The position numbers and the translations under genes are program-made. From Squalus acanthias (lineage: Eukaryota), in contig CM059432.1 in assembly GCA_030390025.1 (NCBI GenBank), positions 19,346,001 to 19,410,000 on the forward strand: a stretch of DNA of 64,000 nucleotides, written 5' to 3'. Below, piece by piece: positions 5,571 through 59,502 of the stretch (position 1 is the first letter of the stretch; each line of letters opens with the position of its first letter). Under the pieces are notes generated by a model, which was not told the DNA's origin, made no database searches, and was given only the letters and a program-made list of their open reading frames with translations.

Positions 5571-5867
5571 TCACGGCAGCAACAGATGAGAGTCACAATT
5601 ATACAGTTCACTCAGATGCAGAGATATTAATCTGCAGTCACAGCATGAATTTATTCTCGTGCTTGCTCATTCTGGATTCGCACAAAATGAATACTCTTCT
5701 GATCTAATGATTCAACTGTATATTTAAATGTAATGAAGTAAAATAAAACAGATAAATCTGGAGCTTTACTTTAACTCAATCATGACTGAAGAACAAGGGC
5801 ACCATGTGGTAAACGGCAAGTTCGGGACTGATGTCAGGAAGCACTTCTTTATACAAAGAGTGACCAA

Positions 5868-6700
5868 TACATGGAATTTAATCCGGAGAAGTGTGAGGTA
5901 ATGCATTTGGGGAGGGCTAACAAGGAAAGGGAATATACATTAAATGGTAGGACACTGAGTAGTGTAGAGGAACAAAGGGACCTTGGAGTGCATGTCCACA
6001 GATCCCTGAAGGTAGCAGGCCAAGTAGATAAGATGGTTAAGAAGGCATACGGAATGCTTGCCTTTATTAGCTATGGCATAGAATATAAGAGCAGGGGGCT
6101 TATGCTTCAACTGTATAAAGCACTAGTTAGGCCTCAGCTAGAGTACAGCATGCAGTTCTGGTCACCACATTACAGGAAAGATGTGATTGCACTAGAGAGG
6201 TTACAGAGGAGATTTACAAGGATATTGCCGGGAGTAGAGAATCTTAGCTACGAGGAAAGACTTGATAGGCTGGGTCTCTTTTCCTTGGAACAGAGGAGGC
6301 TGAGGGGAGACCTTATTGAGGTGTATAAAATTATGAGGGGCATGGATAAAGTGGATACAGAGGACCTATTTCTCTTAGCAGAGGGGTCAAAAACCAGGGG
6401 GCACAGATTTAAAGTAATTGGGGGAAGGTTTAGTGGGGATTTGAGGGGAAATTTCTTCACCCAGAGGGTTGTGGGGGTCTGGAACTCACTGCCTGAAAGG
6501 GTGGTAGAGGCAGGAACCCTAACCACATTTAAAAAGTACTTGGATGTGCACTTGGGATGCTCTAACCTGTAGGGCTATGGACCAAGAGCTGGGAAGTGGG
6601 ATTAGGCTGGATAGCTCTTTGTTGGCTGGCACGGACACGATGGGCTGAAATGGCCTCCTTCCGTGCTGTAACTTTCTATGATTCTATGATTCTATGATCT
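5868..6700 (+). mobile_element. 5'-truncated CR1 LINE (RT C-terminus, 3'UTR, (TTCTATGA)n tail)
   Basis: ORF 5871-6572 MEFNPEKCEVMHLG...FFTQRVVGVWNSLP; tail repeats at about 6673-6698. Confidence 0.9.
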
Positions 6701-28208: not shown

Positions 28209-28941
28209 TATGATTCTAACTCTGTTCACGGGATACGGGACAGGATCAATGGCAGGTCAAAGTGACAGGCAGAGGTCATCTGGCAGTATCATTCCACCGC
28301 CAGAATTTCTAAGCTTATTAGATTTTACACCTCCACTGCAGCCCTTAAACTGCAGTGTTCAATGTCCTACTTATAAATCTGACGAGAATGAAATATCAAA
28401 ATCTTTTACAACATACATAGCTTGTTCATTAAGGAGGAATCCTCAAGGGGCCAGTGTTTCCATGCCTTCTATCCCTACCTTTATATTCTTTGTTCTGTTG
28501 TGTTTGTTGATGGGATTCTATTAGCTTTAGAAATTTTTGTTACCCTATGGCACAAAGCGTTGAACAATTTGAATGAAAAATACAACTCAATTCAGTCATA
28601 GAAAGAGTGTTCAAGGTGACGGTGACAAAGCTGGATAGAAAAGACACTAAAGTTGAAGCCGAGATCGTTCGGGAGTAATGCTACTTTGCGGGTAGCCACC
28701 ACCAATCCACATTTTTCATTTTTAATTACATTATTGCACAATGACTAAAACATCAATTGAGCCAATTATTAGGGATAGAATCGATTAAATAACCCAAGGT
28801 ACCACTCTCTGTAATAGTATGAGCCATAAGTAGATGTGCTTTGTTGCATTTGAAGCATTTTTAAATCTCTCCTGCCCTGAGTGACTAATCATTTACAATA
28901 ACTCTTCCGTGCATTTTCAGCTCAGTGTGAAACGGTTGGGC

Positions 28942-30615
28942 TGTAAAGTTTCGCAATTATCGCGATTCGAAATAACGAGATAGAAGCAGATTCGTTTGAT
29001 CAGTTTATTTAAACAAAATGCTGTCATGATTAAACAGGACACAGAAGCCTGTAAAATGGCCGCCGCGCATCGTGGCAGAAGTTTCCAGAAGTACAGTGGG
29101 CAGACAAGATGGCGTTCGAATAAACATTTTCGATAAGCACTGATAAAGACAGGATGCAACCTGTTTGCAATTATGACAATAACAAAAGATATGAGTGCTG
29201 GAATCGTTTTCCATGCACAAGTAAGGACCATTGTACTGGGCAATCGAAGGCCCATCCAGACACATCAATACGCAAATACCCTCACGGCTCTACAATGAGA
29301 GAGCCATTCTCGGGTGATTAAACAAGTATTCGGGGGCCCCCAAAACCCAGCCAGGGAGGCTCCTAGCCGGTTCGACAATGGGAAAAACATTAACGGGTAG
29401 TTGGCCAGTCTCAGGTGCTACCGAAACCCGTTAAAGACAAGAATCACCCCATGCTGGGAGTTTTGAGCGCCAATATTTCACAAAGGACAAACATTAAGAT
29501 TTGGGCGGGAGATAAGGGAACACAGCACTATAACTATAGACAACAAATGTCCATCGCTCTCTTACTCCCTTGATTCGATTCTTATTCGCTTGATTCGTGC
29601 TCTTGTTTCTCTGGACTGTTGACTCTGGACTTTTAGCCGCACTGGACGGTTATTCGAATGTTGGGTGGAGCTCAAACGGAACGAGCCGCCTCAACGAAGG
29701 CCGGTAACCGGGTGCACCATCCCGAGTGTCGGTAAACGGTGTTCTGGACCCGAAGGCCCGAAGAGACGAGACGAGACGAGATGAGAAGAGAAGAAGAAGA
29801 ATCCACGTGCCGCCGCGGTCAGTAAACCCCGACCGCGCCGAATTTATACGAACTCTATCAGTTACTGCACGAACTGGTCATAGACTCTTCCTCGAATTTT
29901 ATCGACAACCGGTGTCGATACAGGAAGACTCTTCTTTGAATTCTACCGGTAACTGGTGTCGGTCCAGGAAGACTCTTCTTTGAGTTCTACAGCCGGGCCC
30001 GAGCACTGTCGAGTTCTTCATGACAACGGGGAGCCCAGCCTGCTTGCAGCAGCAGCGAAAGTAAACAAGTGGGGTACAGAGACCCCTCAAAACACGTGAC
30101 AGTCAGGCGCCGCAGCGAAACGAGCCGAGCGCCTCACTTTAAAATTCTCCGAAGTATCATGAGTGGTGAGCATGTTTCACTATCCTACAAATCTAGATGT
30201 AGTGTAGGTATTGATAGGGGAGGGTGGTTTTATTAAGGATAAAGTATAATGTGTTCCCCTTTTTACGATGTGCCGTGCGTTCTTCATTACCATAGACCAA
30301 GCTTTATGAATATATGTATACTTGTACTCTCGTTAATTTGTGCCTATGACATGTACTTCATGATTTTAGACACTATGCAATAAAGATTTCCATTTCGTAC
30401 TATTCAACCGGGTCTATTTGAGTTTTTCTCTGCATTATTGCTCTCGCACCTAAGTCCAGTGTTAGAACCGTAAGGGCGAGTGGGTCGAACCACTCACAGG
30501 TGCTTATTGCAACAAGGCTGGCCGGAGACCAGAGCAAGCAATAGTATTGGGCAACGAAGGCCTAACCCCGCACCAGCATCGTCTGCGATACAAGCATGAC
30601 ACAGAACCCCTTACA
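28942..30615 (+). repeat. 5' LTR
   Basis: Direct repeat of 37947-39620; AATAAA at 30379-30384. Confidence 0.95.
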
Positions 30616-30619
30616 GGAA

Positions 30620-32420
30620 ATGGCGACCACGAAGGGACACTGGCAGCGAGAGAGTAATGTTTTAGACCCTGGTGTGAATAGGCGAAATGTGATGGATGAG
30701 AGGGTAGCCGACTATGTGTTTGGGAAGGTTAACTTAACCAAAAGGTGGATAAGTGACCTACTGATGGATAAGCGTCCGCTAGACGCAGCCATCAAATGGA
30801 CAGGCAGTAAAGAGCATAAGAAGTCGGTGGAGAAAGCGGTCTGGCTGATGTGCTACAAGAAGCAGGTCCAACTTTCTGACCAGGTCATTGTAGCACAGGC
30901 AGCTCAGATCAGGGAATTGGAAGTTGAGATGGAGGAAAAGGTCACGGGAGGACAGAAACTCATTGCATCCTTGAATGCATTACATCAGGAACGCCAGATA
31001 GTAGCCAACCACCATGAGGCTAAAATTGATTACCTAGAGTGTCAGGTCACGGAAGCAAAGTTAAACGAGGGTAGGATTAGAGAACAGTGTGCCCGACTAT
31101 GCTAACCAGATAAAAGCCCAGGAAGAAAGCTTGAAGGGAGTTAGGGCGGCATATAAGATGGCCCTCGAGGATAGGCATGAGGGAGCCGACCACAGTGTTT
31201 GCCAGAAGGAGATAGGGAACCTAAGAGAGGCCCTGAATAAGGCAAACGGCATGGTGTGCCTCATCAGCCCGTCAGCAAACCAGCTACAGGTGGGTGGGGA
31301 ATTCCCAAAATCCCTACCAGACAAAGCAGAGGAGGTATTTGCCACTGCGCCCTCCACGCCACCCAGCTATACGGCAACCTGGGTAAGGGAGGAAGTGGTG
31401 GAAATAGAGAAGGAGGTTCCCGAGGTAGGACAATCCCCAGAGGTAGAGTCGAAACCGGGACCGATGTGTCCGCTCCGAGGTCACAAGAGAGGCCCGAATG
31501 GGGAAAATGGGGAGGACGGGGATGTCCTGAACCAGCTTGTATTGCCTCACAGCTCACACCAGCTGAGAGCAATGATTAGCCATGTACGGAAGCTGTCCGA
31601 ATCAGACGACCCTTCCGTACACTTTAGGGAGGTAGAACAGACCGCAGCAATTAATGGCTGCGACGATGTGGAAAAGACCAAAATGTTGCTGTTCTCGTTA
31701 GATAGCTCGATCCTTCAGTGTCTCTCAGACGAGAGCAAGAGGGGAAATAAAACCTATGAGGAGTTAAGGGACGAGGTCCTAGAAGTGTTAGGGGCGGATG
31801 ACGAAGGTCCGTTCGTCAGATTGAGTCAAACCCTGCAGATGGAGGGAGAACCCCTGAAGGTTTTCGCCGACAGGCTGTGGCCAGTATACCAGCGTAGCTG
31901 CCCAGGTGCGCCAGCGCGCCACCACCTGGACGGTGCCGGTTTAACTCATTGGCTTAGGTGTTTAGTAGCCAACAGTTTGCCAGCCGTCAGGGAGCAGGCC
32001 AAAGCGTGGTTTGATCCCACTAACCCCGCCACAACAGAGGAGTCGGTCCTAAATCGACTCACGATAGGGTATCGGAACACTAGGAGCACGGGAGCGTGTC
32101 CCCTTAAGGGAAAGGTGCGTGAGGCACGGCCCGCAGCCCCGGCTCAAAAGGAGTGGCATCAGGAGGGAAACCGCGCCCCACAAGCCAGTGGTGCTTGTTA
32201 CGGGTGCGGGAAGACAGGTCACTGGCGTAAGAACTGTAGGAACCCCTGGAATGACTCCAGGGATAAAAATCCCGCAGCCCGAACCCAAGCGCCTGTCTCT
32301 GAGAGAAGAGCTGGTGTGCCTATCCATCCCGACGCGATCGAATCAATGTTAGGAGCCATGCGGTCTCTTATGATTTTGCACGGGGAGGTAGCAACAGCCC
32401 CATACAACCCAGACTTCTGA
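30620..32420 (+). CDS. gag: Gag polyprotein with a 1-nt frameshift near 31100
   Basis: ORFs 30596-31105 and 31089-32420; coiled coil, PPSY (31359-70), capsid-like QMEGEPLKVFADRL, CX2CX4HX4C knuckle (32196-32237). Confidence 0.85.
30621..30638 (+). promoter_or_regulatory. Primer binding site, tRNA-Arg(TCG)
   Basis: TGGCGACCACGAAGGGAC is complementary to ...GTCCCTTCGTGGTCG-CCA, the 3' end of a vertebrate tRNA-Arg(TCG) as recalled. Confidence 0.85.
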
Positions 32421-33500
32421 CTGGAACCGGTGCAGCCTGCCTACCTGTGTCCCCTTGAAAGACACGCACAGGAGGGGGTCTCCTGTAAGGAGGCCAGGTT
32501 AAAAGAGCAGGCCTTACGGGAGGAGAACGCCCGCTTAATGGGGAAAATAGATGGGCTAGAAGGGCAGCTTAGAGACATAAAGGCAGCCTACAGGGTAGCC
32601 AGGAGCAGGGAGTATGAGGATTTAAACCATGGGAGAAATCTGCAGCCTCCAGCAGGCGAGATTTCACAGAAGGCACAAGCAGGGGCGGTGGCCTGTCATA
32701 GGGGAGGGGCCAAACCTGCGAGTGGGGACTCTCAGCCCCGGGTAGGACCGCAGGGCACACAGACCGGTAAAGCAGCCTGCGTGAGGGGAGAGGACATTCT
32801 ATAAAAGTGTAGGATCTTTTCTTGGTGTTGGGATTCAGATGAGGAAGAGCTCGAGGAGCTCGACCAAGGTAGTGACCCGATCGGAGAGGTGCTGGGGTCG
32901 GAGGACGGAAGTTTCGTCCTCGACTCAAGCTCAGGGGAGATAGGGGCTGCGAGTGGAAATCCACACAGGGTGGAATCAGAAACTGCAGATCCCGAGCCCA
33001 GGGGGGCGGAGCTAGGGGAGACGGAGCCAGCGACTGTGGTAGGACCACAGGTCGTGACGGTGGAAGTCTCGATACCCGGTCCGTCGGCCCTGGAAGTCTT
33101 GCCCTTGGGGGAGGTAGGGATTGCGAGTGGAGGACCACATACTGGGCCAAGTAGGGTGGAACCAGAAGCTGCAAATCCCGAGTTCAGGGAGGCGGAGCCA
33201 GGGGAGACGGAGCCAGCGGCTGTGGTGGGACCACAGGCTGTGACGGTGGAAGTCTTGGTCCCTGGTCCGTCGGCCCTGGAAATCTTGCCCAATGTAGCCC
33301 TCCGTAGGTCAAGTCGGACACCCCAGCCCAGGAAGCCGTGGTCAAGTCCCCCGTACGCCCCCAGGCGTAAGTTCAAGGTCAAGGCAGCCCAGGGAGATCC
33401 CAGTCCCAGCGCAGCAGCGACAGGCTGCGGCAGATCAAAGGAAGGGGTCAGTGCCCTCCCACCACTGGGAAAAGCTCGTGGCAGCCTTCACAGAATTTAG
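32421..33500 (+). CDS. ORF-X, in frame with gag after TGA; one internal TAA (32802-04); non-enzymatic
   Basis: ORFs 32430-32804 and 32889-33500 share a frame and the gap between them is open; no D(T/S)G, YxDD or DDE motifs. Confidence 0.6.
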
Positions 33501-33767
33501 GTAGGCCGCCCTGGGAACGGGCGGCGCTGTACAGTATAAGTTTATAAGTTTATAAGTTTAAGTTTGTAAGTTTTGTAAGTTTGTAGTTTAATTTTAAAAG
33601 TAAATGGTAAAGTGATGGGAGTTTTAGTGATAGGAATTGAAAGTCTATCCAGCATACATGTCTTTTTACGTGAGACGAGGTCAAGGGACCCGCTCACCCT
33701 TCACAAAAGCCAGAGACTCTTGGGAGGCTGGCTATATCATTTTATCTGATCACAGGAACCAGGAAAG

Positions 33768-34913
33768 ATGGAAAGGATTCTGATAGTGCTCGCAACGATC
33801 GGATATGGATTGGCCTATCGGGGCCTCACCAAGGATGTCGTTGTGTTTGGTTGCTCCGGGGACACGGCCCCCATCGCGACGGATGGGACCGGGGAGCGAA
33901 AGGCTGAGGAGACCGCCACTTATTTCCACAAGGGAAGGTGGCCGGGATGGCTGGGAACAAATTCAACGGAATACTCCAGCGCATCCGGATTTGCTTACAA
34001 AGAGACTTCTTTACTGTGCCCCAGAGTGAGGATCATTGCACCCAGAATCAGCGTCACCGTCGGCAAAAGGATTTGTTTGACATGCAATGGGAAGGTCCCA
34101 ATGAGCCGATGGTGGTGGTTACGGAAGTTAAGCAAGACTATGAGAAATTCCTCGGTTGAGTGGGAGCGATTGGGTAACAATACCCATCGGACAATTACGG
34201 GGACTAACGGACAATTGAAAGTCTGTTGGGACAAATGGTGGGAACTGGATGAGGGAATATATGTTTGTATGTGGGGGTCGAAGTACGTTTGCCCCAAGGG
34301 TATATCCATATTTTTCGTACACCAGTGGCAGGATAACGGGAAAGGGATGAGGTGGGATGTCAGCACAAAGGGGTGCGGAGCTCCATTCACCCCGATCCCG
34401 GTAAACGCCACTGAACTCATCACACGCCCACGCAAGTCTCCGCCCACGATTCCGGTGGTTTTGGCTCAGGAGGAAGGGTGCCCTAAAACCACTAAGGGGC
34501 CCGGGAATGGTTTGGTACTGGTCCCAACAGACCAGATACTATTTCAAGGGGTACATTACGCGGTGGCTTCGGTGATTCTAAATCTCACCAAGATGCATTT
34601 ACCAGAGTGGTGTCCCAAAGAGACGGAACAATTGTACCAGGTCCTGTTGACAAACATGTTCAGACAATTCTACGAGTTTGATTTTGCAGAGATTGACAAA
34701 ACAAGCTTGTACACCACACCACACGAAGTTTTGGGTCAGGTGGGGAGACAGAGAAGGGGCATTGTGAACGATATGTTCACCGCCTTTAATACAGGAACAT
34801 CTGTGGTCAACGCTCTAGACAACGTGGAGCTGCAGACCCAGATCAATGTTTTAAAAACACAATTAAAAAGCATCCTCACAAGCGAAAACAAGGTAGTAGG
34901 GTCTGAGTTACAT
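33768..34913 (+). CDS. env: Env 5' part: signal peptide, Ig-like domain, furin site, fusion peptide, start of heptad repeat
   Basis: MERILIVLATIGYGLA; C...W...DEGIYVC; RQRR|GIVNDMFTAFNTGTSVVN; acceptor ttttatctgatcacag at 33740-55. Confidence 0.85.
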
Positions 34914-36349
34914 GAAACATAGAAACATAGAAACATAGAAAATAGGTACAGGAGTAGACCATTCGGTCCTTCGAGCCTGCACCGCCATTCAATGCGTTCA
35001 TGGCTGAACATGCTACCTCAGTACCCCATTCCTGCTTTCTCGCCATACCCCTTGATCCCCCTAGTTGTGAGTGTTATATCTAACTCCCTTTTGAATATAT
35101 TTAGCGAACTGGCCTCAACAACCTTCTGTGGAAGAGAATTCCATAGATTCACCACTCTCTGGGTGAAGAAGTTCCTCCTCAGTTCAGTCTTAAATGGCTT
35201 CCCCTTAATCCTTAGACTGTGACCCCTGGTTCTAGTTTTCCCTAACATTGGGAACATTCTGCCCACATCTAATTTGTCTAAACCAGTCAGGATTTTAAAT
35301 GTCTCTATAAGATCCCCCCTCATTCTTCTGAACTCCAGAGGATACAAGTTCAGTTGACCCAATCTTTCTTGATATGTCAGTCCGGCCATCCCAGGAATCA
35401 ATCTAGTGAACCTTCGCTGCACTCCCTCAATAGCAAGAATGTCCTTCCTTAAGTTAGGAGACCAAAACTGCGCACAATACTCCAGGTGTGGCCTCACCAA
35501 GGCCCTGTACAACTGCAGCATCACCTCCCTACTCCTGTACTCAAATCCCCTTGCTATGAAGGCCATCATTCCGTTTGCTTTCTTGACTGCCTGCTGCACT
35601 TGCATTCCCACCTTCAGTGACTGATGTACCATGACGCCCAGGTCTCGTTGCACCTCCCCTTTCCCTAATCTGCTACCATTCAGGTAATAGTCCGCCTCTC
35701 TATTTTTACCACCAAAGTGGATAACCTCACATTTATCCACATTGTACTTCATCTGCCATACATTTGCCCATTCACCCAACCTGTCCAAGTCACTCTGTAG
35801 CCTCCTAGCATCCTCCTCATTGTTCACACTGCCTCCCAATTTAGTGTCATCCGCAAATTTGGAGATATTACATTTAATCCCTTCGTCCAAATCATTAATA
35901 TATAATGTAAACAGCTGGGGTCCCAGCACCGAACCCTGCGGTACCCCGCTGGTCACTGCCTGCCATTCTGAAAAGTACCCATTTACTCCTACTCTTTGTT
36001 TCCTGTGTGCCAACCAGTTCTCAATCCACGTCAACACATTACCCCCAATCCCATGTGCTTTAACTTTGCTCACCAATCTCTTGTGTGGGACCTTGTCGAA
36101 GGCCTTCTGAAAGTCCAAATACACCACATCTACTGGTTCCCCCCTGTCCACCCTATTGGAAACATCCTCAAAAAATTCCAGAAGATTTGTCAAGCATGAT
36201 TTCCCTTTCACAAATCCATGCTGACTTGGACCTATCATGTCGCCACTTTCCAAATGGTCTGTTATGACATCTTTAATAATTGCTTCCATCATTTTACCCA
36301 CGACCGATGTCAGGCTGACCGGTCTATAATTCCCTGCTTTCTCCCTCCG
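34914..36349 (-). mobile_element. 5'-truncated CR1 LINE inserted antisense in env
   Basis: Intact 427-aa RT ORF (35018-36301; YLDFQKAFD, GVPQGSVLGP, KFADD); (TTTCTATG)n tail at 34914-34940. Confidence 0.95.
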
Positions 36350-37552
36350 GACCAGGCCATGACACTACACTTAAAAGAAATTATAGCAGAGCTGGAAAAG
36401 CATGCGAGAATGGTAAATGCCCTGATTAGGGAAGATCGGAATGCATCCGATCAAGCTGCGCAGAACAAGGTGTGCGTACTATACGGGGCGTGGTTACTGG
36501 GTGAGGGCCGCAGTAATTTGGAGGATTTAAAACAAGGTTTGGTCCCGTCCTGGATAAGTAACAAACACCTGCAGGCGCTCCACCCTTTTCAGAACGCATT
36601 AAGCCCGTGCCAGCTCAGGCTAGCCTCAGAGGCATACCCAGTCCCCGTGGACTGCGGACGGTCAAACCATACCATCATGGGTATAGTACTACGTATGCCG
36701 GTTTTGGGCGACACAGCAAAGCCCGCCCCGGTGTATCGGGTAGAGAACATTGGTGTCATTCAGGGGGGAGCCCACATTCGCTACGCAGCAGTCCCACCTT
36801 ACGTCATCCGCTGGGAGCAAACGATGACAGGTACCGACCTATCGGGTTGTCGTGGCCGGGGAGCACACATCATCCTGTGTCCCCAGCACTTGAATGCCTT
36901 TTTAACACCACAATGCGGGTTCAGAACGGCTGGCGCGAAGCCCATGAATTGCACCATGGAGGCAATGACCCAAGATCATGTGCCTCCGCAGGTGGCATAC
37001 ATAGGGGGTGGAACATATTGCGTTACCACTGCAGCGCAACACTACCAGCATGGAAACCACAGCCGGTGTCCGGTGAGTGACAGCAGTTTCTGTTTTAAAC
37101 CCAGGGCTGAAGTTCCAGTGGCACAACAGCGAATTGTCCCGATCCCTGAACCATCCACTGTTCACCTTACAGTAAAAGAGAATTTCACCGACTTGCAGCG
37201 ATTCATCGCGCATTTCAGATACATCATTCCCCCTCTCCCTGAACACCTCACCAAGCTTTTGAAAGCCATCATGGTATCACAGAAACATTTTTACACCCTG
37301 GAACAAAAGACTGTAGAAATAGGGACAGAAATTTTGGACATAGTAGTCCCACCGTGGTGGGACCTGTTCACCAATATTGAAGTTCCTTCATGGATCAGGA
37401 TAGCCTCCCACATTTTGGTTGTGTGCCAAGTAGTGATTGTAGTGTACCTACTGGTCGTACACTGCAAAAGAGGCAAACGCCTCACAAAGCAGGAGAACAC
37501 AGGAGAGTGGAGAGAACGTTACATGCGCGTGAACGAGGAAAGTACCGCGTAA
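36350..37552 (+). CDS. env: Env 3' part: heptad repeat, Cys-rich domain, TM anchor, cytoplasmic tail
   Basis: DQAMTLHLKEIIAEL...; many Cys; TM IASHILVVCQVVIVVYLLVV followed by a basic tail; rejoins the 5' part in frame. Confidence 0.85.
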   Translation, partial: DQAMTLHLKEIIAELEKHARMVNALIREDRNASDQAAQNKVCVLYGAWLLGEGRSNLEDLKQGLVPSWISNKHLQALHPFQNALSPCQLRLASEAYPVPVDCGRSNHTIMGIVLRMPVLGDTAKPAPVYRVENIGVIQGGAHIRYAAVPPYVIRWEQTMTGTDLSGCRGRGAHIILCPQHLNAFLTPQCGFRTAGAKPMNCTMEAMTQDHVPPQVAYIGGGTYCVTTAAQHYQHGNHSRCPVSDSSFCFKPRAEVPVAQQRIVPIPEPSTVHLTVKENFTDLQRFIAHFRYIIPPLPEHLTKLLKAIMVSQKHFYTLEQKTVEIGTEILDIVVPPWWDLFTNIEVPSWIRIASHILVVCQVVIVVYLLVVHCKRGKRLTKQENTGEWRERYMRVNEESTA

Positions 37553-37946: not shown

Positions 37947-39620
37947 TGTAAAGTTTCGCAATTATCGCGATTCGAAATAATGAGATAGAAGCAGATTCGT
38001 TTGATCAGTTTATTTAAACGAAATGCTGTCATGATTAAACAGGACACAGAAGCCTGTAAAATGGCCGCCGCGCATCGTGGCAGAAGTTTCCAGAAGTACA
38101 GTGGGCAGACAAGATGGCGTTCGAATAAACATTTTCGATAAGCACTGATAAAGACAGGATGCAACCTGTTTGCATTTGTGACAATAACAAAAGATATGAG
38201 TGCTGGAATCGTTTTCCATGCACAAGTAAAGACCATTGTACTGGGCAATCGAAGACCCATCCAGACACATCAATACGCAAATACCCTCACGGCTCTACAA
38301 TGAGAGAGCCATTCTCGGGTGATTAAACAAGTATTCGGGGGCCCCCAAAACCCAGCCAGGGAGGCTCCGAGCCGGTTCGACAATGGGAAAAACATTAACG
38401 GGTAGTTGGCCAGTCTCAGGTGCTACCGAAACCCGTTAAAGACAAGAATCACCCCATGCTGGGAGTTTTGAGCGCCAATATTTCACAAAGGACAAACATT
38501 AAGATTTGGGCGGGAGATAAGGGAACACAGCACTATAACTATAGACAACAGATGTCCATCGCTCTCTTACTCCCTTGATTCGATTCTTATTCGCTTGATT
38601 CGTGCTCTTGTTTCTCTGGACTGTTGACTCTGGACTTTTAGCCGCACTGGACGGTTATTCGAATGTTGGGTGGAGCTCAAACGGAACGAGCCGCCTCGAC
38701 GAAGGCCGGTAACCGGGTGCACCATCCCGAGTGTCGGTAAACGGTGTTCTGGACCCGAAGGCCCGAAGAGACGAGACGAGACGAGATGAGAAGCGAAGAA
38801 GAAGAATCCACGTGCCGCCGCGGTCAGTAAACCCCGACCGCGCCGAATTTATACGAACTCTATCAGTTACTGCACGAACTGGTCATAGACTCTTCCTTGA
38901 ATTTTATCGACAACCGGTGTCGATACAGGAAGACTCTTCTTTGAATTCTACCGGTAACTGGTGTCGGTCCAGGAAGACTCTTCTTTGAGTTCTACAGCCG
39001 GGCCCGAGCACTGGCGAGTTCTTCATGACAACGGGGAGCCCAGCCTGCTTGCAGCAGCAGCGAAAGTAAACAAGTGGGGTACAGAGACCCCTCAAAACAC
39101 ATGACAGTCAGGCGCCGCAGCGAAACGAGCCGAGCGCCTCACTTTAAAATTCTCCGAAGTATCACGACTGGTGAGCATGTTTCCCGATCCTACAAATCTA
39201 GATGTAGTGTAGGTATTGATAGGGGAGGGTGGTTTTATTAAGGATAAAGTATAATGTGTTCCCCTTTTTACGATGTGCCGTGCGTTCTTCATTACCATAG
39301 ACCAAGCTTTATGAATATATGTATACTTGTACTCTCGTTAATTTGTGCCTATGACATGTACTTCATGATTTTAGACACTATGCAATAAAGATTTCCATTT
39401 CGTACTATTCAACCAGGTCTATTTGAGTTTTTCTCTGCATTATTGCTCTCGCACCTAAGTCCAGTGTTAGAACCGTAAGGGCGAGTGGGTCGAACCACTC
39501 ACAGGTGCTTATTGCAACAAGGCTGGCCGGAGACCAGAGCAAGCAATAGTATTGGGCAACGAAGGCCTAACCCCGCACCAGCACCGTCTGTGATACAAGC
39601 ACGACACAGAACCCCTTACA
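37947..39620 (+). repeat. 3' LTR
   Basis: About 21 substitutions relative to the 5' LTR by eye, with no indels. Confidence 0.95.
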
Positions 39621-40260
39621 GGGCTATGCACAACTATAAGGAGTCATTAACATTTACTGTGAATGCAATCTAAGAGAGACTTCAGGATTTGAAAGCAATA
39701 TGCGATTTTTAAAATCTAACTGCAGTGATTATGTCACAGAGTTGACTTAAAAGAAAAAAGAAAAATATTCAGAAATGGAAATTGCCCTCTTCATTCAATT
39801 GCATGCTAGAAGGGAAAACAGGTATTACACGTGTCTATTAAGGGATAATGGGGATTATTTTGGTCTATTTTTCGCTGGGACCTCTTAATCTCACATTTGA
39901 ACCGCTCCAATCAGGTTTCCACCCCTGCCACAGCACTGAAACGGCGTTATCAAAGTCACAAATGATGTTAAATTATCCCTCCTCATTCTTCTCGACCTGC
40001 CTGTAGCCTTTGACAGCGTTGACCATGCCATCCTCCTCCAAGGCTTTTCCTCCGTTGTCCAGCCGAGTGGGAGTGCCCTCGCCTGGTTCCATTCTTATCT
40101 TTCCAGTCGCAGCCAAAGAAACTTCCGCAATGGCTTCTCCTCCCGTTCCCGCACCATTACGTTTGGAGTCCACCGAGGATCTATCCTTGTCCCCCTCCTA
40201 TATCTTGTCTGCATGCTGCCCCTTGGCGACATCATCCGAAAACAAAGCATCAGATTCCAT

Positions 40261-42104: not shown

Positions 42105-44625
42105 TGTAAGATTTGGATCACAGGTCACACACAGATTACCCAAAGGGTCTTAGGAGTTGTAAGGCATTTTATTAAGGAGCGGCAGTTTAAGTTAAGTACA
42201 TCACGCAATCAAGATAAACATAGTAGGGAGGAAATGGCCGAGTGAGAGAACCATGGTTCACAAAAGAGGTTGAATGTCTAGTCAAGAGGAAAAAGGAAGC
42301 GTATGTAAGGATGAGAAAACAAGGTTCAGTTGGGTCGATTGAGGGGTACAAGGTAGCAAGGAATGAGCTAAAAAAAGAGCTTAGGAGAGCTAGGAGGGGG
42401 CATGAGAAGTCCTTGGCGGGTCGGATCAAGAAAAACCCCAAGGCTTTTTACTCTTATGTGAGAAATAAAAGAATGACCAGGGTGAAGGTAGGGCCGGTCA
42501 AGGACAGTAGTGGGAACTTGTGCATGGAGTCAGAAGAGATAGGAGAGGTGATGAATGAATACTTTTCGTCAGTGTTCACCGAGGAGAGGGGCCATGTTCT
42601 TGAGGATGAGAGTGTGATAAAGGTGGATAGGCTGGAGGTGGTAGATGTTCTGAGGGAAGATGTTTTAGCAATTTTGAAGAACCTGAGGGTCGATAAGTCC
42701 CCTGGGCCAGATGGGATATATCCTAGGATTCTTTGGGAGGCAAGGGAGGAGATTGCAGAGCCTCTGGCTTTGATCTTTGGGTCCTCACTGTCCACGGGGA
42801 TGTTGCCAGAGGACTGGAGAGTGGCGAATGTTGTTCCTCTCTTCAAGAAAGGAAATAGGAATGACCCTGGTAATTATAGGCCGGTTAGTCTTACTTCGGT
42901 GGTTGGTAAGATAATGGAAAAGGTCCTGAGGGATAGGATTTATGACCATTTGGAAAGGGGCAACTTAATCAGGGATAGTCAACACGGATTCGTGAAGGGT
43001 AAGTCTTGCCTAACAAATTTGATTGAATTCTTTGAGGAGGTAACTAAGTGTGTAGATGAAGGTAGAGCAGTTGATGTTGTATACATGGATTTTAGTAAGG
43101 CGTTTGATAAGGTTCCCCATGGTCGGCTCATGAAGAAAGTAAGGAGTTGTGGGATAGAGGGAAATTTGGCCGATTGGATAAGTAACTGGCTATCTCATAG
43201 AAGGCAGAGGGTGGTGGTGGATGGAACATTTTCGGACTGGAGACCAGTTACCAGCGGTGTGCCACAGGGGTCGGTGCTGGGTCCTCTGCTGTTTGTGATT
43301 TTTATCAATGACTTGGAGGAGGGGACTGAAGGGTGGATCAGTAAATTTGCTGATGACACCAAGATTGGTGGAGTAGTGGATGAGGTGGAGGGCAGTTGTA
43401 GGCTGCAAAGAGACATTGATAGGATGCAGAGCTGGGCCGAAAAATGGCAGATGGAATTTAACCCTGATAAGTGCGAGGTGATTCATTTTGGTAGGGCAAA
43501 TGTGAATAAGGATTACAGGGTCAACGGCAGGGTTCTGAGGAACGTGGAGGAGCAGAGGGATCTGGGGGTTCATATCCACAGATCTCTGAAGGTTGCCACT
43601 CAAGTGGATAGAGCAGTAAAGAAGGCCTATGGTGTGTTGGCGTTTATTAACAGAGGGTTTGAGTTTAAGAACCGTGAGGTTATGCTGCAACTGTACAGGA
43701 CCTTGGTGAGACCACATTTGGAATATTGTGTGCAGTTCTGGTCACCTCACTATAGGAAGGACGTGGAAGCATTGGAAAGAGTGCAAAGGAGATTTACCAG
43801 GATGCTGCCTGGTTTGGGGGGGAGGTCTTATGAGGAAAGATTGAGGGAGTTGGGGCTTTTCTCTTTAGAGCGGAGGAGGATGAGAGGCGACTTAATAGAG
43901 GTTTATAAGATGATGAGGGGGATAGATAGAGTGGATGTTCAGAGACTATTTCCTCGGGTAGAGACAGCTGTTACAAGGGGGCATAACTATAAGGTGCATG
44001 GGGGGAGATATAGAAGGGATGTCCGAGGTAGATTCTTTACTCAGAGAGTGGTTGGGGTGTGGAATGGACTGCCTGCTGTGATAGTGGAGTCGGACACTTT
44101 AGGAACTTTCAAGCGGTTATTGGATAAGCACATGGAGCACACCAGAGTGATAGGGAGTGTGATAGCTTGATCTTGGTCTCGGACAATGCTCGGCACAACA
44201 TCGAGGGCCGAAGGGCCTGTACTGTGCTGTACTGTTCTATGTTCTATGTTCTATGTTCTATAGTAGACATACGACCGTGACAAGCAGCTGGTATCGGTCC
44301 CGATCGGACAAATGGCTGACATGCGTGAACAGCTCTTCCCTTCCCTTCACCGTCTGTGCTAAAAGCTCTTTTGATATCTCTTTTACTCTCTTTTTAGGGG
44401 TGGGCCTAGGGTAGATTATCAAAGATACAGTCAACAACCTCTCTAGCACACAAACAGCAGACAGCTATTCTGGAAACAAGATCACCGCCACGGTGCAGAA
44501 TGTTATAACATCCGCAGGGAACCAAGAACATCAGCAAATTCTAAGCGTCCATCCAGTTATTCTAACACCAGTCTGAAGAGACTTTTTTGTCTCAAGTTAT
44601 TTCTTCCAATTCACGATTTCTTACA
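42105..44625 (-). mobile_element. Solo LTR (about 480 bp net) interrupted by CR1
   Basis: TGTAAGA...TCTTACA ends, CCCT/TCCT flanks, minus-strand AATAAA near 42170. Confidence 0.7.
42227..44259 (+). mobile_element. Young 5'-truncated CR1 LINE with open 642-aa RT ORF
   Basis: ORF 42242-44170; (TTCTATG)n tail; TSD ATAGTAG (42220-26, 44260-66). Confidence 0.95.
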
Positions 44626-51940: not shown

Positions 51941-54900
51941 GGGGGGGAAAATTAGGTACCATAATGCCTCCTGTTAGCACCAGCAGATGGCGCTAATGGG
52001 GCGCGAGAGCATTATCGCGGGGTGAGGCTAATCCAGCAGCGCACGGCAAATCCTGCACCCCGCAGTGCCACCGGTAACCGTTATCGCGAGGAGCATCAAT
52101 GCCAGGTGGATCTTGATGTCAGTGAGCGTGCAAAGCTCACCGACCGCCCGATCTGCGAAATTGATTGTCGCCACCTACCTTAGTGCCTGGAGTAAACAGC
52201 GACAGGGAGAGCTGGCGTGAAGCACCAGGAAGCTGGCTCCAGGGACATTATTTAAAAGGATCATCAGTAATCACTTGCAGCTGTCAGATTAGTAGAGTTT
52301 CAGTGATTTCTTGTCAGTTTCACATAGTTCAACAGTTTCATTAGTATTTTCAAGGTTATTTTGCATCAGAAGTGTTGTGGCAACTAAAAAGTAGTTACAT
52401 TTGGTAACATTAATGGGGGCTCTACTGGCATGCCACCTCGCCCTCCAGGATCTACAGCAGAGAGAGCAGCGAGAATGACTGGAACATATGGGCAGAGAGA
52501 TGAGGAGGGACATCAGGGCTCTCAGCAGGAGGCCTTACCCTCCGATGGTATTCCAAAAGCACTTCTCCTACCTTCAATGAAGCGAGGAGCAGTGTATTAG
52601 ACAGCTCCGCTTCACCAAGGAGGTGGTCAAAGAACTCTGCCACCTCCTCCAAATGGACCTCCAGCCTCACACCAGGATGACTTAAAGCCCACATCCCCTT
52701 TGTTCACCACACCCCCATCATTTCATCCCTCTTGCAGGCCATTTCACACGGCAAAGCTGAAATGACAGACACCACAAAAGAATGGTAAGTGAATTAACAC
52801 ATATTTACAACAAAAATATTAACTATTCACCCTTGTGCAATCATTTAGTGTCTCTCGTTACTGTGCCTTTGCCTACTCTAGTGCTCCTACAAAGTGTTGG
52901 CCCAGTGGCTGCAGCAGGCCTGGTGAAAGGCTGCTGAGTGTCCATGCTGGAGACTTTAGATGGCCTTGCAGCTCTGGGCTTGAAAGGCCCGGCTGTAGAC
53001 TGCACCACCTCAGCATGGGCGGCAGCAGTCTGGGCTGGCTGGATGACAGGCAGCGACAAGGGCAAGTGGAGTGGCAGTGGTGGGAGCAGGAATGCTGTCA
53101 TCCTGAGAAAGGACAGCAGATTTCTGCTCCACTGACCCACTGCCACTCCCCCAGGGCAGCACCTCAGCATCCCTAGCAATCTGTTGCAGCACAGATTGCT
53201 GGCCTGCTGCGACAGCATGAAAGCCCGGTCGATGATTGTAGACACAGCTACGATGGCAGCAGTCAGAGCTTGCGTGGCATCAAGCTGAGACTGCATGAGA
53301 GCAGTTTGAGATTGGATGCCACCAAGCATAGACTGCATTACAGCACTAAGACATTGCGTCGCTTCCACTTGTGCTGCAATGGAAGCTGCCACATCCCCCA
53401 TCACACGCGGCATCAAGTCTGGGTCGCCACGGTCTCTCTAGAAGTCTACCATCCTTTCCAGACCCACAGATTTGTGGTTGACTCTTAACTGCCCTCTGAA
53501 ATGGCCTAACAAGCCACTCAGTTGTAACAAACTGCTACGAAACACAATAATAAGAATTAAACCAGACAGGACCACCCGACATCGACCTCGGCACCGGCTG
53601 CGAACAAAGCAACAGCACACCCAGCCCAGTCGACCCTGCAAAGTCCTCCTCACCAACATCTGGGGACTTGTGCCAAAATTGGGAGAGCTGTCCCACAGAC
53701 TAGTCAAGCAACAGCCTGACATAGTCATACTCATAGAATCATACCTTTCAGTCAATGTCCCAAACTCCTCCATCACCATCCCTGGGTATGTCCTGTCCCA
53801 CCGGAAGGACAGAACCACCAGGGGTGGCGGCACAGTGGTATACAGTCGGGAAGGCGTGGTCCTGGGAATCCTCAACATTGACAATGGACCCCATGAAGTC
53901 TCATGGCTTCAGGTCAAGCATGGGCAAGGAAACCTCCGGCTGATTACCACCTACCGCCCTCCCTCAGCTGATGAATCAGTACTCTTCCATGTTGAACACC
54001 ACTTGGAAGAAGCACTGAGAGTAGCAAGGGCACAGAATGTACTCTGGGTGGGGGACTTCAATGTCCATCACCAAGAGTGGCTTGGTAGCACAACTACTGA
54101 CCGAGCTGGCCGAGTCCTGAAGGACATAGCTGCCAGTCTGGGCCTGCGACAGGTGGTGAGAGAACCAACACGAGGGAAAAACCTACTTGACCTCGTCCTC
54201 ACCAATCTACCTGTCGCAGATGCATTTGTCCATGTCTTCACACTGAGGACACCCTCCATCGTGCTGTGTGGCACTACCACCGTGCTAAATGGGATAGATT
54301 CAGAGCAGATCTAGCAGCTCAAAACTGGGCATCCATCAGGCGCTGTGGGCCATCAACAGCAGCAGAATTGTATTCCACCACAATCTGTAACCTCATGGCC
54401 CAGCATATCCCTCACGCTACCATTACCATCAAGTCAGGGGACCAACCCTGGTTTAATAAGGAGTGTAGAAGAGCATGCCAGGAACAGCACCAGGCGTACC
54501 TAAAAATGAGGTGCCAACCTGGGGAAGCTGCAAATCAGGACTACATGCATGCTAAAAAGCGGAAGCAGCATGCTATAGACAGAGCTAAGTGATCCCACAA
54601 TCAACAGATCAGATCAAAGCTCTGCAGTCCAGCCACATTCAGTCGTGAATGGTGGTGGACCATTAAACAACTAATGGGGAGGAGGAGGCTTCATGAATAT
54701 CCCCATCCTCAATGATGGTGGAGCCCAGCACGTGAGTGCAAAAGACAAAGCTGAAGCGTTTGCAACCATCTTCAGTCAGAAGTGCCGAGTGGATGATCCA
54801 TATCGGCCTACTCCTGAGGACCCCAGCATCACAGAAGCCAGTCTTCAACCAATTCGATTCACTCCACGTGATATCAAGAAACGGCTGAGCGCACTGGATA

Positions 54901-56915
54901 CAGCAAAGGCTGTGGGCCCTGACAAAATCCCGGCTATCGTGCTGAAGACTTGTGCTCCAGAACTAGCCGTGCCTCTAGCCAAGCTGTTCCAGTACAGCTA
55001 CAACACTGGCATCTATCCGACAATGTGGAAAACTGCCCAGATATGTCCTGTCCACAAAAAGCAGGACAAATTCAATCCGCCCAATTACCGCCCCATCAGT
55101 CGACTCTCAATCATCAGCAAAGTGATGGAAGGGGTCATCAACTGCGCTATCAAGCAGCACTTACTCACCAATAACCTGCTCACTGATGCCCAGTTTGGGT
55201 TCCGCCAAGATCACTCGGCTCCCGACCTCATTCCATCCTTGGTCCAAACATGGGCAAAGGAGCTGAATTCCAGAGGTGAGGTGAGAGTGACTGCCCTTGA
55301 CATCAAGGCAGCATTTGACCGAGTCTGGCATCGAGGAGCCCTGGTAAAACTGAAGTCAATGGGAATTGGGGGGAAAACTCTCCACTGGCTGGAGTCATAC
55401 CTAGCACAAAGGAAGATGGTTGTGGTGGTTGAAGGTCAATCATCACAGTCCCAGGACATCACTGCAGGAGTTCCTCAGGGCAGTGTCCTAGGCCCAACCA
55501 TCTTCAGCTGCTTCATCAATGACCTTCCCTCCAACATAAGGTCAGAAGTGGGGATGTTCGCTGATGACTGCACAGTGTTCAGTGCCATTCACAACTCCTC
55601 AGATAATGAAGCAGTCCATGCCCGCATGCAACAAGACCTGGACGACGTTCAGGCTTGGGCTGATAAGTGGCAGGTAACATTCGCACCATAAAAGTGCCAG
55701 GCAATGACTATCTCCAACAAGCAAGAATCTAACCAACGCCCCTTGCCATTCAACGGCATTACCATCGCTGAATCCCCCACCATCAACATCCTGGGGGTCA
55801 CCATTGACCAGAAGCTTAACTGGACCAGCCACATAAATACTGTGGCAACAAGAGCAGGTCAGAGGCTAGGTATTCTGCGGCGAGTGTCTCACCTCCTGAC
55901 TCCCCAAAGCCTTTCCACCATCTACAAGGCACAAGTAAGGAGTGTGATGGAATACTCTCCAGTTGCCTGGATGAGTGCAGCTCCAACAACACTGAAGAAG
56001 CTCGACACCATCCAGGACAAAGCAGCCCGCTTGATTGGCACCCCATCCACCACCTTAAACATTCACTCCCTCCACCACCGGCGTACCGTGGCTGCAGTGT
56101 GTACCATCTACAAGATGCACTGCAGCAACTCGCCAAGGTTTCTTCGGCAGTACCTCCCAAATCCGCGACCTCTTCCACCTGGAAGGACAAGGGCAGCAGG
56201 CGCATGGGAACACCATCACCTCCAAGTTCCCCTCCAAGTCACACACCATCCTGACATAGAAGTATATCGCTGATCCTTCATCATCGCTAGGTCAAAATCC
56301 TGGAACTCCCTCCCTAATAGCACTGTGGGAGTACCTTCACCACAAGGACAGCAGCGGTTGAAGAAGGCGGCTCACCACCACCTTCTCAAGGGCAATTAGG
56401 GATGGGCAATAAATGCTGGAATTGCCACATCCCATAAAAACGAATAATTGTTTTTTATAAGACTGGAAATGATGGGCTCCATGATGTGCACAGAGCCTTG
56501 TGCAATGTTGGAGGCAGACTCCTCCACGCTCCTTATCATTGCCTGAAAGTTTCTCAGCCACCCTTGCCAATGCACCTATCTCCGTGTGCATGCCCATCAC
56601 CCTTCTTCTAAACGCATCCCCATCAAGGTCCGCATCTGAGTCCTGTGCAGCAGAACTCGCACACTTACTCGCCCTCTGGGGAGCTGGCCCCCGAGCTACC
56701 CTTTCCCCCTGGCCTCACTGCAGCCCACTCGTCCCCGATGCCTCACCCTGTGCAGCTCTCGCTACTACACTAGCCTCTAAAGAACGCGTAGTGCCAGTAT
56801 CTGAGCTGGTGCCTGCGGGTGAGACATGCAGTGACGTGCTGTGTTCTTCCTCCTCCTCTTCTCCCACCTCGCTCTCTGCGGTGCCCTCAGGGACAGGCTG
56901 CTCAGGTGCTTGCTG
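51941..56915. mobile_element. Defective Harbinger (transposase N-terminus on +, partner-gene C-terminus on -) interrupted by a LINE
   Basis: 52412-52680 reads RRPYPP..F..HFSYL..SEEQCIRQLRFTKEVV.ELCHLL; low-complexity coiled segments on - at 52840-53430 and 56460-56910. Confidence 0.65.
53440..56450 (+). mobile_element. Near full-length APE-RT LINE (CR1/Jockey group), disrupted
   Basis: APE 53472-54314 (GDFNVHH); RT 54693-55691 (LDIKAAFD, GVPQGSVLGP, MFADD); frameshift near 54235, stops at 54590 and 55689; AATAAA near 56408. Confidence 0.9.
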
Positions 56916-57089: not shown

Positions 57090-59502
57090 TTTTTGTTATT
57101 AAAATTTGATGAATATGAAAGAAAGAATTCCCATAAAAGTGAAGGATCCAGCTTGTTCCCAAAGAATTCTGGGATACTTGACTATGTTAACTGAAAAGGT
57201 TCAGCTTGTTTCCAATGAATTCTGGGATACTTGACTATGCAGGTTTAGCTGACTGAAACACATTTGCAGACAGCAAGGGGCCTCTTCTCTTACCAAACTT
57301 CGGAATGTGTATATTCACAGCCTCAGTAGAGCCATTGTCGAAACACAGCCTGGCCTCCCAAGAGATAAGGGGGCAATTAACGACCAACACTGTTCCAGTC
57401 ACTGAACGCAAAAGCCATTACGGCCTTGAGCCATCTCGCTTGTTTGACTGTTAGGGATGAAATATGTTTTCTCAAACTATAAATTATGCCTACAAAGGGG
57501 AAGAGATAACAGCAAGAATTTGGGGAGTAGGATGAGACAACCAACATCTGTGGCTGGCATGGTCAGCAGGTATCCAAGTTCAAGGGGAGGGCCTGACAGT
57601 TGAGTGACTAACCATAGTATTCAACACCAACAACAGCCAATCTCCAGACACCATCCTACAACTCATCCGCTTCATCCTTGACCACAATGTCTTCACCTTC
57701 GACAACCAGTTTTTTACCCAAACACACGGAACAGCCATGGGAACCAAATTCGCACCCCAATACACCAACATCTTCATGCACAAGTTCGAGCAAGACTTCT
57801 TCGCTGCACAGGACCTCCAACCAACGCTGTACACCAGATACATCGACGACATCTTCTTCCTTTGGACCCACGGCGAAGGATCACTGAAAGGACTACACGA
57901 TAATATCAACAGGTTCCATCCCACCATCAAACTCACCATGGACTACTCCTCAGAATCGGTTTCATTCTTGGACACACGAATCTCCATCAAAGACGGACAC
58001 CTCAGCACTTCACTCTACCGCAAGCCCACGGACAACCTCACGATGCTCCACTTCTCCAGCTTCCACCCTAACCACGTTAAAGAAGCCATCCCCTATGGAC
58101 AAGCCCTGCGAACACACAGGATCTGCTCAGACGAGGAGGAACGTGATGGACACCTACGGACGCTGAAAGACGCCCTCGTAAGAACGGGATATGACGCTCA
58201 ACTCATCGATCGACAGTTCCGACGGGCCACAGCGAAAAACCGCATAGACCTCCTCAGAAGGCGAACACGGGACACAACCAACACAGTACCCTACGTCGTC
58301 CAGTACTTCCCTGGAGCAGAGAAACTACGCCATGTTCTTCGCAGCCTTCAACATGTCATCGATGACGACGAACACCTTGCTAAGGCCATCCCCACGCCTC
58401 CACTACTCGCCTTCAAGCAGCTGCCTAACCTCAAAAGTACCATCGTTCGCAGCAAATTACCCAGCTGTCAGGAGAACAGCGACCACGACACCACACAACC
58501 CTGCCATGGCAACCTCTGCAAGACATGCCAGATCATCAACACAGATACCATCATCACACGTGAGGACACTACCCACCAGGTACATGGTACATACTCATGT
58601 GACTCGGCCAACGTTGTCTACCTCATACGTTGCAGGAAAGAATGCACCGCGGCATGGTACATCGGCGAGACCATGCAGACACTGAGACAACGTATGAACG
58701 GACACCGTGCAACAATCGCCAGGCAGGATTGTTACCTCCCAGTCGGGGAACACTTCAGCAGTCAAGGACATTCAGCCTCGGATCTGCGGGTTAGCGTTCT
58801 CCAAGGCGGCCTTCAAGACACACGACAACGCAAAATCATCGAGCAGAAACGGATAGCCAAGTTCCGCACCCATGAGGACGAACTCAATAGGGATCTCGGG
58901 TTCATGTCACGCTACAGAACGTGACTCGACATCGTTGTCTGTCTTTCCAGTTTAAAAAAAAAACACAAAAAAAGTTAGTTAAAAGCTTAACTGCAGACGG
59001 CAGCATTTGACACATTGGACCCCCTGTGACCCACCTCATTGTCTTAGCTGTACTGTGATGTGTCTTTGATGTAATGCCTCCCTAACAGATTGTATCTCTG
59101 CAGACAAATTGTTCTCTGTGTATATATATACTATGTAATAGATTCCCTCACTGTACCTTTACCTGAAGAAGGAGCGGAGCTCCAAAAGCTCGTAATTTTA
59201 AATAAAACTGTTGGACTATAACCTGGTGTTGTGCGACTTCTCATTTTTAACCATATAACCAATAGAGAGTAACTGTAGTGACACTGTTTGTACATGTACG
59301 CCCCATTCTGTAGTAAGTGGGCGGTGCTTATAGAAATGTATAACTTGAATGAACCGTTACTTGTCCCTCAGAGAGTGCATCCCTAGCTTGAGGAAGCGGA
59401 GTGGCTCTCCCTTGTGCACAAGTCTTTTGTTTGTTTTAATAAATTCTGAACTTGTCCTCAATTCCGTCTCCGTCTGAGGTTTCTCCAAATTCGAATCTAA
59501 CA
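57090..59502 (+). mobile_element. Probable solo LTR remnant hosting a Penelope insertion
   Basis: Duplicated ~37-bp unit at 57150 and 57202; AATAAA near 59438; ends TAACA; 5' boundary and TSD unresolved. Confidence 0.4.
57620..59245 (+). mobile_element. Penelope-like element (RT C-half and GIY-YIG endonuclease)
   Basis: GTAMGTKFAP, RYIDD, FLD, YRKPT, VVYLIRC...WYIGET...R...H; open to 58924. Confidence 0.92.

Follow-up and report, generated by a model that had tools for sequence, protein, structure and literature searches.

In a 64,000-nucleotide stretch of the Squalus acanthias genome (the window), the gag gene of an LTR element is followed, beyond its stop, by a long open frame designated here as ORF-X. 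The element is best read as one of a pol-less, lokiretrovirus-like family of high copy number, whose readthrough tail would be translated yet is probably vestigial. At a probability of roughly 0.6, we consider ORF-X to be the pol remnant of this non-autonomous, env-carrying, lokiretrovirus-like element, its frame having been kept largely independently of its sequence.

The element and the state of its window copy

ORF-X sits in a 10.7-kb LTR element composed of gag, ORF-X and a putative F-type env and lacking pol enzymes:

28942..30615, plus strand: 5′ LTR of 1674 nt, TG...CA, paired with the 3′ LTR
30620..32420, plus strand: gag, coding for a coiled coil at the N-terminus, a capsid-like core and a CCHC knuckle, frameshifted near 31100, ending in TGA
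30621..30638, plus strand: primer-binding site (PBS), overlapping the gag ATG at 30620
33768..37552, plus strand: env, putatively of class I F type, with signal peptide, RQRR site, heptads and TM, interrupted by a LINE
34910..36364 (edges approximate), minus strand: CR1-type LINE inside env, 5′-truncated (RVT_1 E 2e-34), with similar copies elsewhere in the window
37947..39620, plus strand: 3′ LTR, with a short purine-rich tract just upstream

A 4-bp target duplication flanks the element (GGGC, 28938-28941 and 39621-39624), and its LTR pair differs by 21 substitutions (14 transitions, 7 transversions) with no gaps, which at the rate implied by PMC4422223 translates, with large uncertainty, into roughly 28 million years. 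The LTR is unusually long (1674 nt; 28942-30615) and contains internal tandem arrays of 44-nt and 5-nt units. The PBS, presumably of tRNA-Arg type (the window contains no tRNA gene for comparison), overlaps the start codon of gag and thus encodes the first Gag residues; skate Gag P0001 begins at the same residue as the window Gag, identically. Named relatives of this Gag come from skate (58%), catshark and whale shark. The Foldseek matches listed for the Gag model (mean pLDDT 48) were all retroviral capsids, the best of them MLV (E 0.007), and the modelled protein may be described as an N-terminal coiled coil joined to an MLV-like capsid, the capsid match being weak but consistent.

For env, no sequence match was obtained in Pfam or PDB; its Atlas features point, at low recognition, to Baculo_F clusters (0.93-0.94) and Fusion_gly (0.87), and a single-sequence model made with no alignment reached a pLDDT of 36. 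Since the CR1-type LINE is inserted in env, it is younger than the provirus; it holds an unbroken 448-codon RT frame. Other retroelement frames of the window, at 402-1082, 5832-6572, 42227-44170, 53442-55691 and 57608-58924, are represented by CR1/L2-type LINE pieces and an RT/GIY-YIG-like frame, by eye of Penelope type.

Once the LINE is set aside, neither motif search nor tblastn revealed protease, RT, RNase H or integrase motifs in any of the element's six reading frames, in agreement with the earlier suggestion that the enzymes are gone. Copies are numerous, with 4112, 1737, 436 and 244 family contigs in four sequencing runs. Having an LTR pair, target duplication, PBS, PPT, no enzymes and many copies, the element is a non-autonomous LTR retroelement. 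Its window copy is broken three times (the gag frameshift near 31100, the TAA in ORF-X and the LINE in env), and owing to the frameshift and the LINE it cannot make Gag-X, the readthrough product of gag and ORF-X. The LTR divergence predicts 0.21 nonsense changes in ORF-X with 1 observed, and this single change is compatible with decay after insertion.

Composition of the frame behind gag

Direct reading of the window places the gag terminator TGA at 32418-32420, followed by CTG, and in the same frame only two further stops occur, TAA at 32802-32804 and TAG at 33498-33500. This confirms the initial description of a frame open to 33500 save for one TAA and gives ORF-X a length of 359 codons plus the stop. 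The remaining five frames over 32421-33497 carry from 5 to 16 stops each, and one stop or fewer was encountered in 1 of 2000 second-order Markov simulations and in none of 2000 base shuffles, by which a chance open frame was ruled out. A separately initiated gene is considered improbable, the first ATG being located at aa 40 and no splice joint being present among the joints listed. All the features that the sequence-only reading had ascribed to ORF-X were recovered: it begins with LEPVQPAYLCPL, displays a coiled-coil pattern at aa 22-71 and an acidic patch at aa 138-148, harbors LRRSSRTPQP at aa 294-303 within a basic end (aa 291-359, 15 K/R vs 2 D/E), and contains a tandem repeat of two 138-nt copies, 88% alike, with an in-frame spacing of 186 nt (62 codons). 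Its parts are:

32418..32424, plus strand: candidate readthrough site UGA-CUG-G, read from the window sequence (UGA-CUA in relatives)
32421..32483, plus strand: aa 1-21, presumed N-terminal stub of pol, from position and one sister contig
32490..32633, plus strand: aa 24-71, homologue of the last part of the coiled coil at the Gag N-terminus, from alignment and shuffles
32634..32705, plus strand: aa 72-95, linker with the coil/tail junction, without match, bridged by a run-X7 contig
32706..33500, plus strand: aa 96-359 with the stop codon, C-terminal tail of the pol integrase, from homology to P0008
32802..32804, plus strand: internal TAA, a break in the window copy, P0008 being open and collinear on either side
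32967..33290, plus strand: in-frame internal duplication with unit spacing of 186 nt; one unit in P0008, 1-3 in family contigs

Directly 3′ of the ORF-X stop there is a GC-rich hairpin (33505-33525; z -1.55), kept in a diverged run-X10 contig, and an AT-rich array of TAAGTT type (33535-33595) lies between this hairpin and env.

The largest part of ORF-X was assigned by means of a HMMER search over cluster representatives with gag plus ORF-X as a query (X at stops), which yielded 25 proteins, two of them touching ORF-X meaningfully. Residues 59-265 of P0008 align to ORF-X aa 96-358 at identities of 47% (117 residues) and 42% (132 residues). The two sequences are collinear to the last residue with coinciding stop positions; P0008 has no stop at the position aligned to TAA 32802, possesses a single copy of the repeat unit, and shares with ORF-X, at ~45% identity, blocks that include the acidic patch, LRRS..PQPRK.W and the 30 C-terminal residues. 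The first 50 residues of P0008 represent the end of an integrase with GPY/F-SH3 (E 0.002 to SH3_Tf2-1 of Pfam), so that the end of pol appears to be kept, as had been supposed, with the ORF-X tail matching that which follows the SH3 motif. This integrase end is 78% identical to that of sevengill-shark P0032, a protein that combines an RNase H domain, a zinc finger and an integrase core, starts inside RNase H and carries this domain directly upstream of integrase; P0032 is NYNRIN-like according to its source name and has a foamy integrase as best PDB match. P0032 gave no match to ORF-X itself.

Judged by homology to a single protein, P0008, on which the assignment depends, 263 of the 359 codons (acidic patch, repeat unit, LRRS and basic tail included) are the integrase tail of pol itself, implying that pol was gutted and not replaced by a new gene. 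The proposal that a 360-codon ORF replaces pol consequently stands with regard to the loss of enzymes and goes too far with regard to the replacement, only ~50 codons being demonstrably foreign; the match to the integrase tail also sets ORF-X apart from a captured accessory gene, that is, an ORF unrelated to pol. P0019, P0024 and P0025 were dropped as relatives, their matches being of repeat or zinc-knuckle type. A word-indexed search with the whole ORF-X gave no match, and scans of metagenome and viral contigs with Gag and P0032 gave no confirmed locus; these searches yielded neither an autonomous gag-pol junction of the family nor a relative with RT.

The front part is of different composition. 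The first 21 codons, which match none of the Gag targets, are inferred from their position to be the start of pol. Residues 24-71 are identical to the own Gag at 17 of 47 positions (X at the break), to the whale-shark prediction P0022 at 22 of 42 and to P0004 at 20 of 47, and for 9 of 12 Gag-like targets none of 300 shuffles reached the score, which supports the Gag origin claimed for this coil. At the DNA level it has no match to the own gag, and this, together with the 36% identity, indicates that the coil is old or derives from a sister family. A 23-codon (69-nt) tandem duplication within it, at 32504-32572, is present in contigs of all four runs. An Atlas search with aa 1-127 retrieved nothing beyond unnamed clusters at low recognition. 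In the predicted protein P0020 a Gag coiled-coil piece is fused directly to the env N-terminus; it may come from a related family, either as a further deletion derivative or as the outcome of splicing.

The gag stop and the frame in other copies

The stop of the window gag, UGA-CUG, differs by one base from the type II readthrough context (UGA-CUA or UGA-CGG), which a 3′ stem-loop often accompanies. Alphaviruses have UGA-CUA as their type II context, and mammalian readthrough genes have UGA-CUAG (PMC13517186, bioRxiv 10.1101/2021.04.18.440353). One diverged family contig has TGA at the same position followed by CUA-G, its first three codons being changed silently. Six lokiretrovirus gag ends were searched in the supplement of PMC7947760: all four readable ones display TGA-CTA and, by manual count, the frame continues into pol at these four junctions, while the other two gave no match in the genome text, probably because of line breaks. 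A stop context of readthrough type, assumed initially from UGA-CU, is supported by the sister contig and the lokiretrovirus junctions, which make readthrough plausible by inheritance, and there are good grounds to infer UGA readthrough at the gag stop in this lineage. The stem starting at +13 after the stop has z from -1.7 to -2.1, with 3 of 22 other windows folding better. The CUG of the window copy in place of type II CUA and the unremarkable fold count against an explanation based on readthrough. The type II TGA-CTA junction of lokiretroviruses is apparently unremarked: the main text of PMC7947760 is silent on it, lokiretrovirus readthrough has 0 mentions in the main texts examined, and the two terms occur together in none of the 40 literature matches listed out of 1326.

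The window stretch is partly present in 20 of the 22 sequencing runs listed, and contigs were compared for 4 runs from three organisms. Family contigs cover ORF-X in all four, and a run-X7 contig crosses from coil to tail, reaching 50 letters into one flank and 44 into the other, which demonstrates the existence of the pol-less form in a second organism. Contig counts refer to those rows that were listed (40 differences out of 570, 12 indels out of 17 and 24 loose ends out of 408), among which position 32802 does not occur. On this basis net length changes inside ORF-X, counted by hand, amount to 3, 6, 39, 69 and 186 nt; all five are multiples of three, as is one of the four changes of the non-coding spacer (small sample; binomial p 0.004 and Fisher p 0.048). 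The count leaves out a joint whose net size is unknown and a deletion that extends past the ORF end. If the 6-nt event, a possible alignment artefact, is omitted, four of four remain (binomial p 0.012, Fisher p 0.14). The listed length changes are in keeping with a frame retained among copies, and the ORF-X stop remains a stop in variant contigs. Among the 32 listed of 6567 pieces, a listing that favours long gap-free ones, eight fall in ORF-X and contain 149 substitutions in 1306 letters with one 3-nt gap; autonomous copies could be the source of short contigs located on the tail.

Between the two repeat units 4 silent changes were counted over ~38 sites and 12 replacement changes over ~100 sites, and with this ratio of ~1.1 the internal repeat shows no sign of protein-level constraint. 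Silent differences make up 4 of 10 of those listed for ORF-X, 11 of 22 for gag and 2 of 8 for env, numbers too small to judge.

Related systems, alternative explanations and meaning

Pol that is internally deleted or replaced, with amplification in trans, is known from avian EAV-HP, recKoRV and maize Bs1, none of which, to our knowledge, keeps a readthrough junction into a frame of Gag coil and integrase tail. The family is similar to lokiretroviruses in the layout of Gag and in the junction and, as far as the matches suggest, in the types of env and integrase, the element itself having no RT for placement. Lokiretroviruses are distinguished by an RT that is sister to sampled retroviruses, a dual RNase H (tether plus RH), an integrase close to CGIN1/NYNRIN and an Env related to paramyxo/pneumovirus F. 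Traits in common with those of PMC7947760 are a coiled-coil ('smc') Gag with MLV-like capsid, long LTRs and a gag end of TGA-CT, to which a putative F-type env and a possibly CGIN1/NYNRIN-like integrase, seen here in a relative, may be added; in contrast, the window element lacks pol enzymes and has a CCHC Gag knuckle, and the integrase tail of its family is long, whereas the published lokiretrovirus pol genes examined end shortly past the SH3-like motif. The supplement of the same work identifies smc as the N-terminal coil of Gag itself, and ORF-X was therefore rejected as an 'smc' gene. That survey includes no cartilaginous fish, the five shark and chimaera assemblies looked up in it being unmarked (PMC7947760). 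The GPY/F-SH3 motif of P0008 and P0032 is a Ty3/Gypsy marker but is common to retroviruses and Odin, and the element is without RT.

Among non-autonomous ERV derivatives the closest is zebrafish BHIKHARI (Bik-1, Bik-2), relatives of lokiretroviruses with coiled-coil Gag that were amplified without their own pol; BHIKHARI is Gag only, whereas the window family retains env and an in-frame pol remnant (bioRxiv 10.1101/2024.03.25.586437). An in-frame gag/pol stop is also described for gamma-, epsilon- and unclassified fish and frog retroviruses, with UGA in SSSV, ZFERV and XtERV-S (PMC13517186, PMC8278194). The window element differs from these retroviruses in a stop context (UGA-CU) that resembles the type II of alphaviruses and in a product without enzyme behind the stop. 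A literature search for pol-less gag-env ERVs in sharks and for in-frame pol deletions returned nothing relevant.

Under the pol-remnant reading, the parent would have expressed pol by UGA readthrough and would then have lost protease, RT, RNase H, integrase core and SH3 in phase. The frame would be closed by ~20 codons of pol start, as their position suggests, and, as homology shows, by ~50 codons of Gag coil, probably a template-switch product, and a 263-codon low-complexity integrase tail. Active members may make Gag, Env and a few percent of Gag-X, borrowing enzymes in trans from a helper and spreading thereby. The frame would have stayed open mostly through inheritance and selection against frameshifts, the amino-acid sequence not being the reason, and its maintenance with no visible residue constraint fits selection on translation itself. 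Readthrough shields RNAs from NMD, depending on the length of the downstream ORF (PMC5360307), and ribosomes running past the gag stop could plausibly protect the long genomic RNA in this way; an argument against such a role is that ~4 kb or more of the RNA would lie untranslated 3′ of the ORF-X stop. The window copy would have decayed since its insertion.

The same open frame might belong to a selected accessory protein, Gag-X, with readthrough delivering a second Gag-type coil and the integrase tail to the particle in cis; in its detailed version the coil binds the Gag lattice, the LRRS and basic end tethers the own cDNA to nucleus or chromatin, and catalysis is provided by a helper. Two junctions in phase, the frame-keeping length changes with the coil duplication of all four runs, the almost gapless ORF-X pieces, the motifs and last 30 residues held in common with P0008 and the preserved stop speak in its favour, but replacement sites of the repeat differ as often as silent ones, the listed ORF-X differences are too few to show constraint, and the conservation with P0008 may predate enzyme loss. 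The tether is conceived by analogy with LANA and foamy Gag, the models of chromatin or nuclear tethering, and a literature search for chromatin tethering by retroelement integrases found no paper. With this balance a selected accessory role appears unlikely, and we regard as similarly doubtful the broader statement that a widespread shark pol-less, env-carrying family packages a selected, enzyme-free Gag-X via programmed UGA readthrough for assembly or tethering in cis. If true, selected Gag-X would isolate a non-catalytic job of the retroviral integrase tail.

It is quite improbable, in turn, that ORF-X is a passive relic, i.e., an in-phase deletion product amplified fast, with no selection on it and with readthrough absent or irrelevant: the dN/dS of ~1.1, the weaker CUG context and ordinary fold of the window copy and the potential origin of tail contigs from autonomous copies agree with such a course, but contigs diverged by 8-14% stay in frame, coil and junction included, the pol-less form is common to at least two organisms, and coil plus junction distinguish this form, except if the coil was part of pol from the start. 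This last condition, by which the coil would belong to the pre-protease pol spacer of the parent as an old gag duplication and ORF-X would result from one in-frame deletion, we consider very improbable. It would accommodate the low identity of the coil to the own Gag, the lack of a DNA-level match and the long variable leaders that precede protease in lokiretrovirus pol ORFs published in PMC7947760, but the coil scores highest against P0022 and P0004, which are Gag-type proteins from other subfamilies, and no loose end leading from coil to other sequence is present among those listed.

Pol-less derivatives are common, and the gross structure of the element is therefore ordinary. The family appears lokiretrovirus-like and occurs in cartilaginous fish, where the survey marked 0 of 5 assemblies looked up, and the UGA-CUA junction present in the lokiretrovirus sequences of the same source brings an alphavirus-type signal into a retrovirus lineage (PMC7947760). 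In a family found in several organisms, 1 kb of readthrough frame has stayed open in spite of the deletion, and this makes testable the old question of whether readthrough serves retroelements beyond the supply of enzymes, be it RNA stability or a non-catalytic tail.
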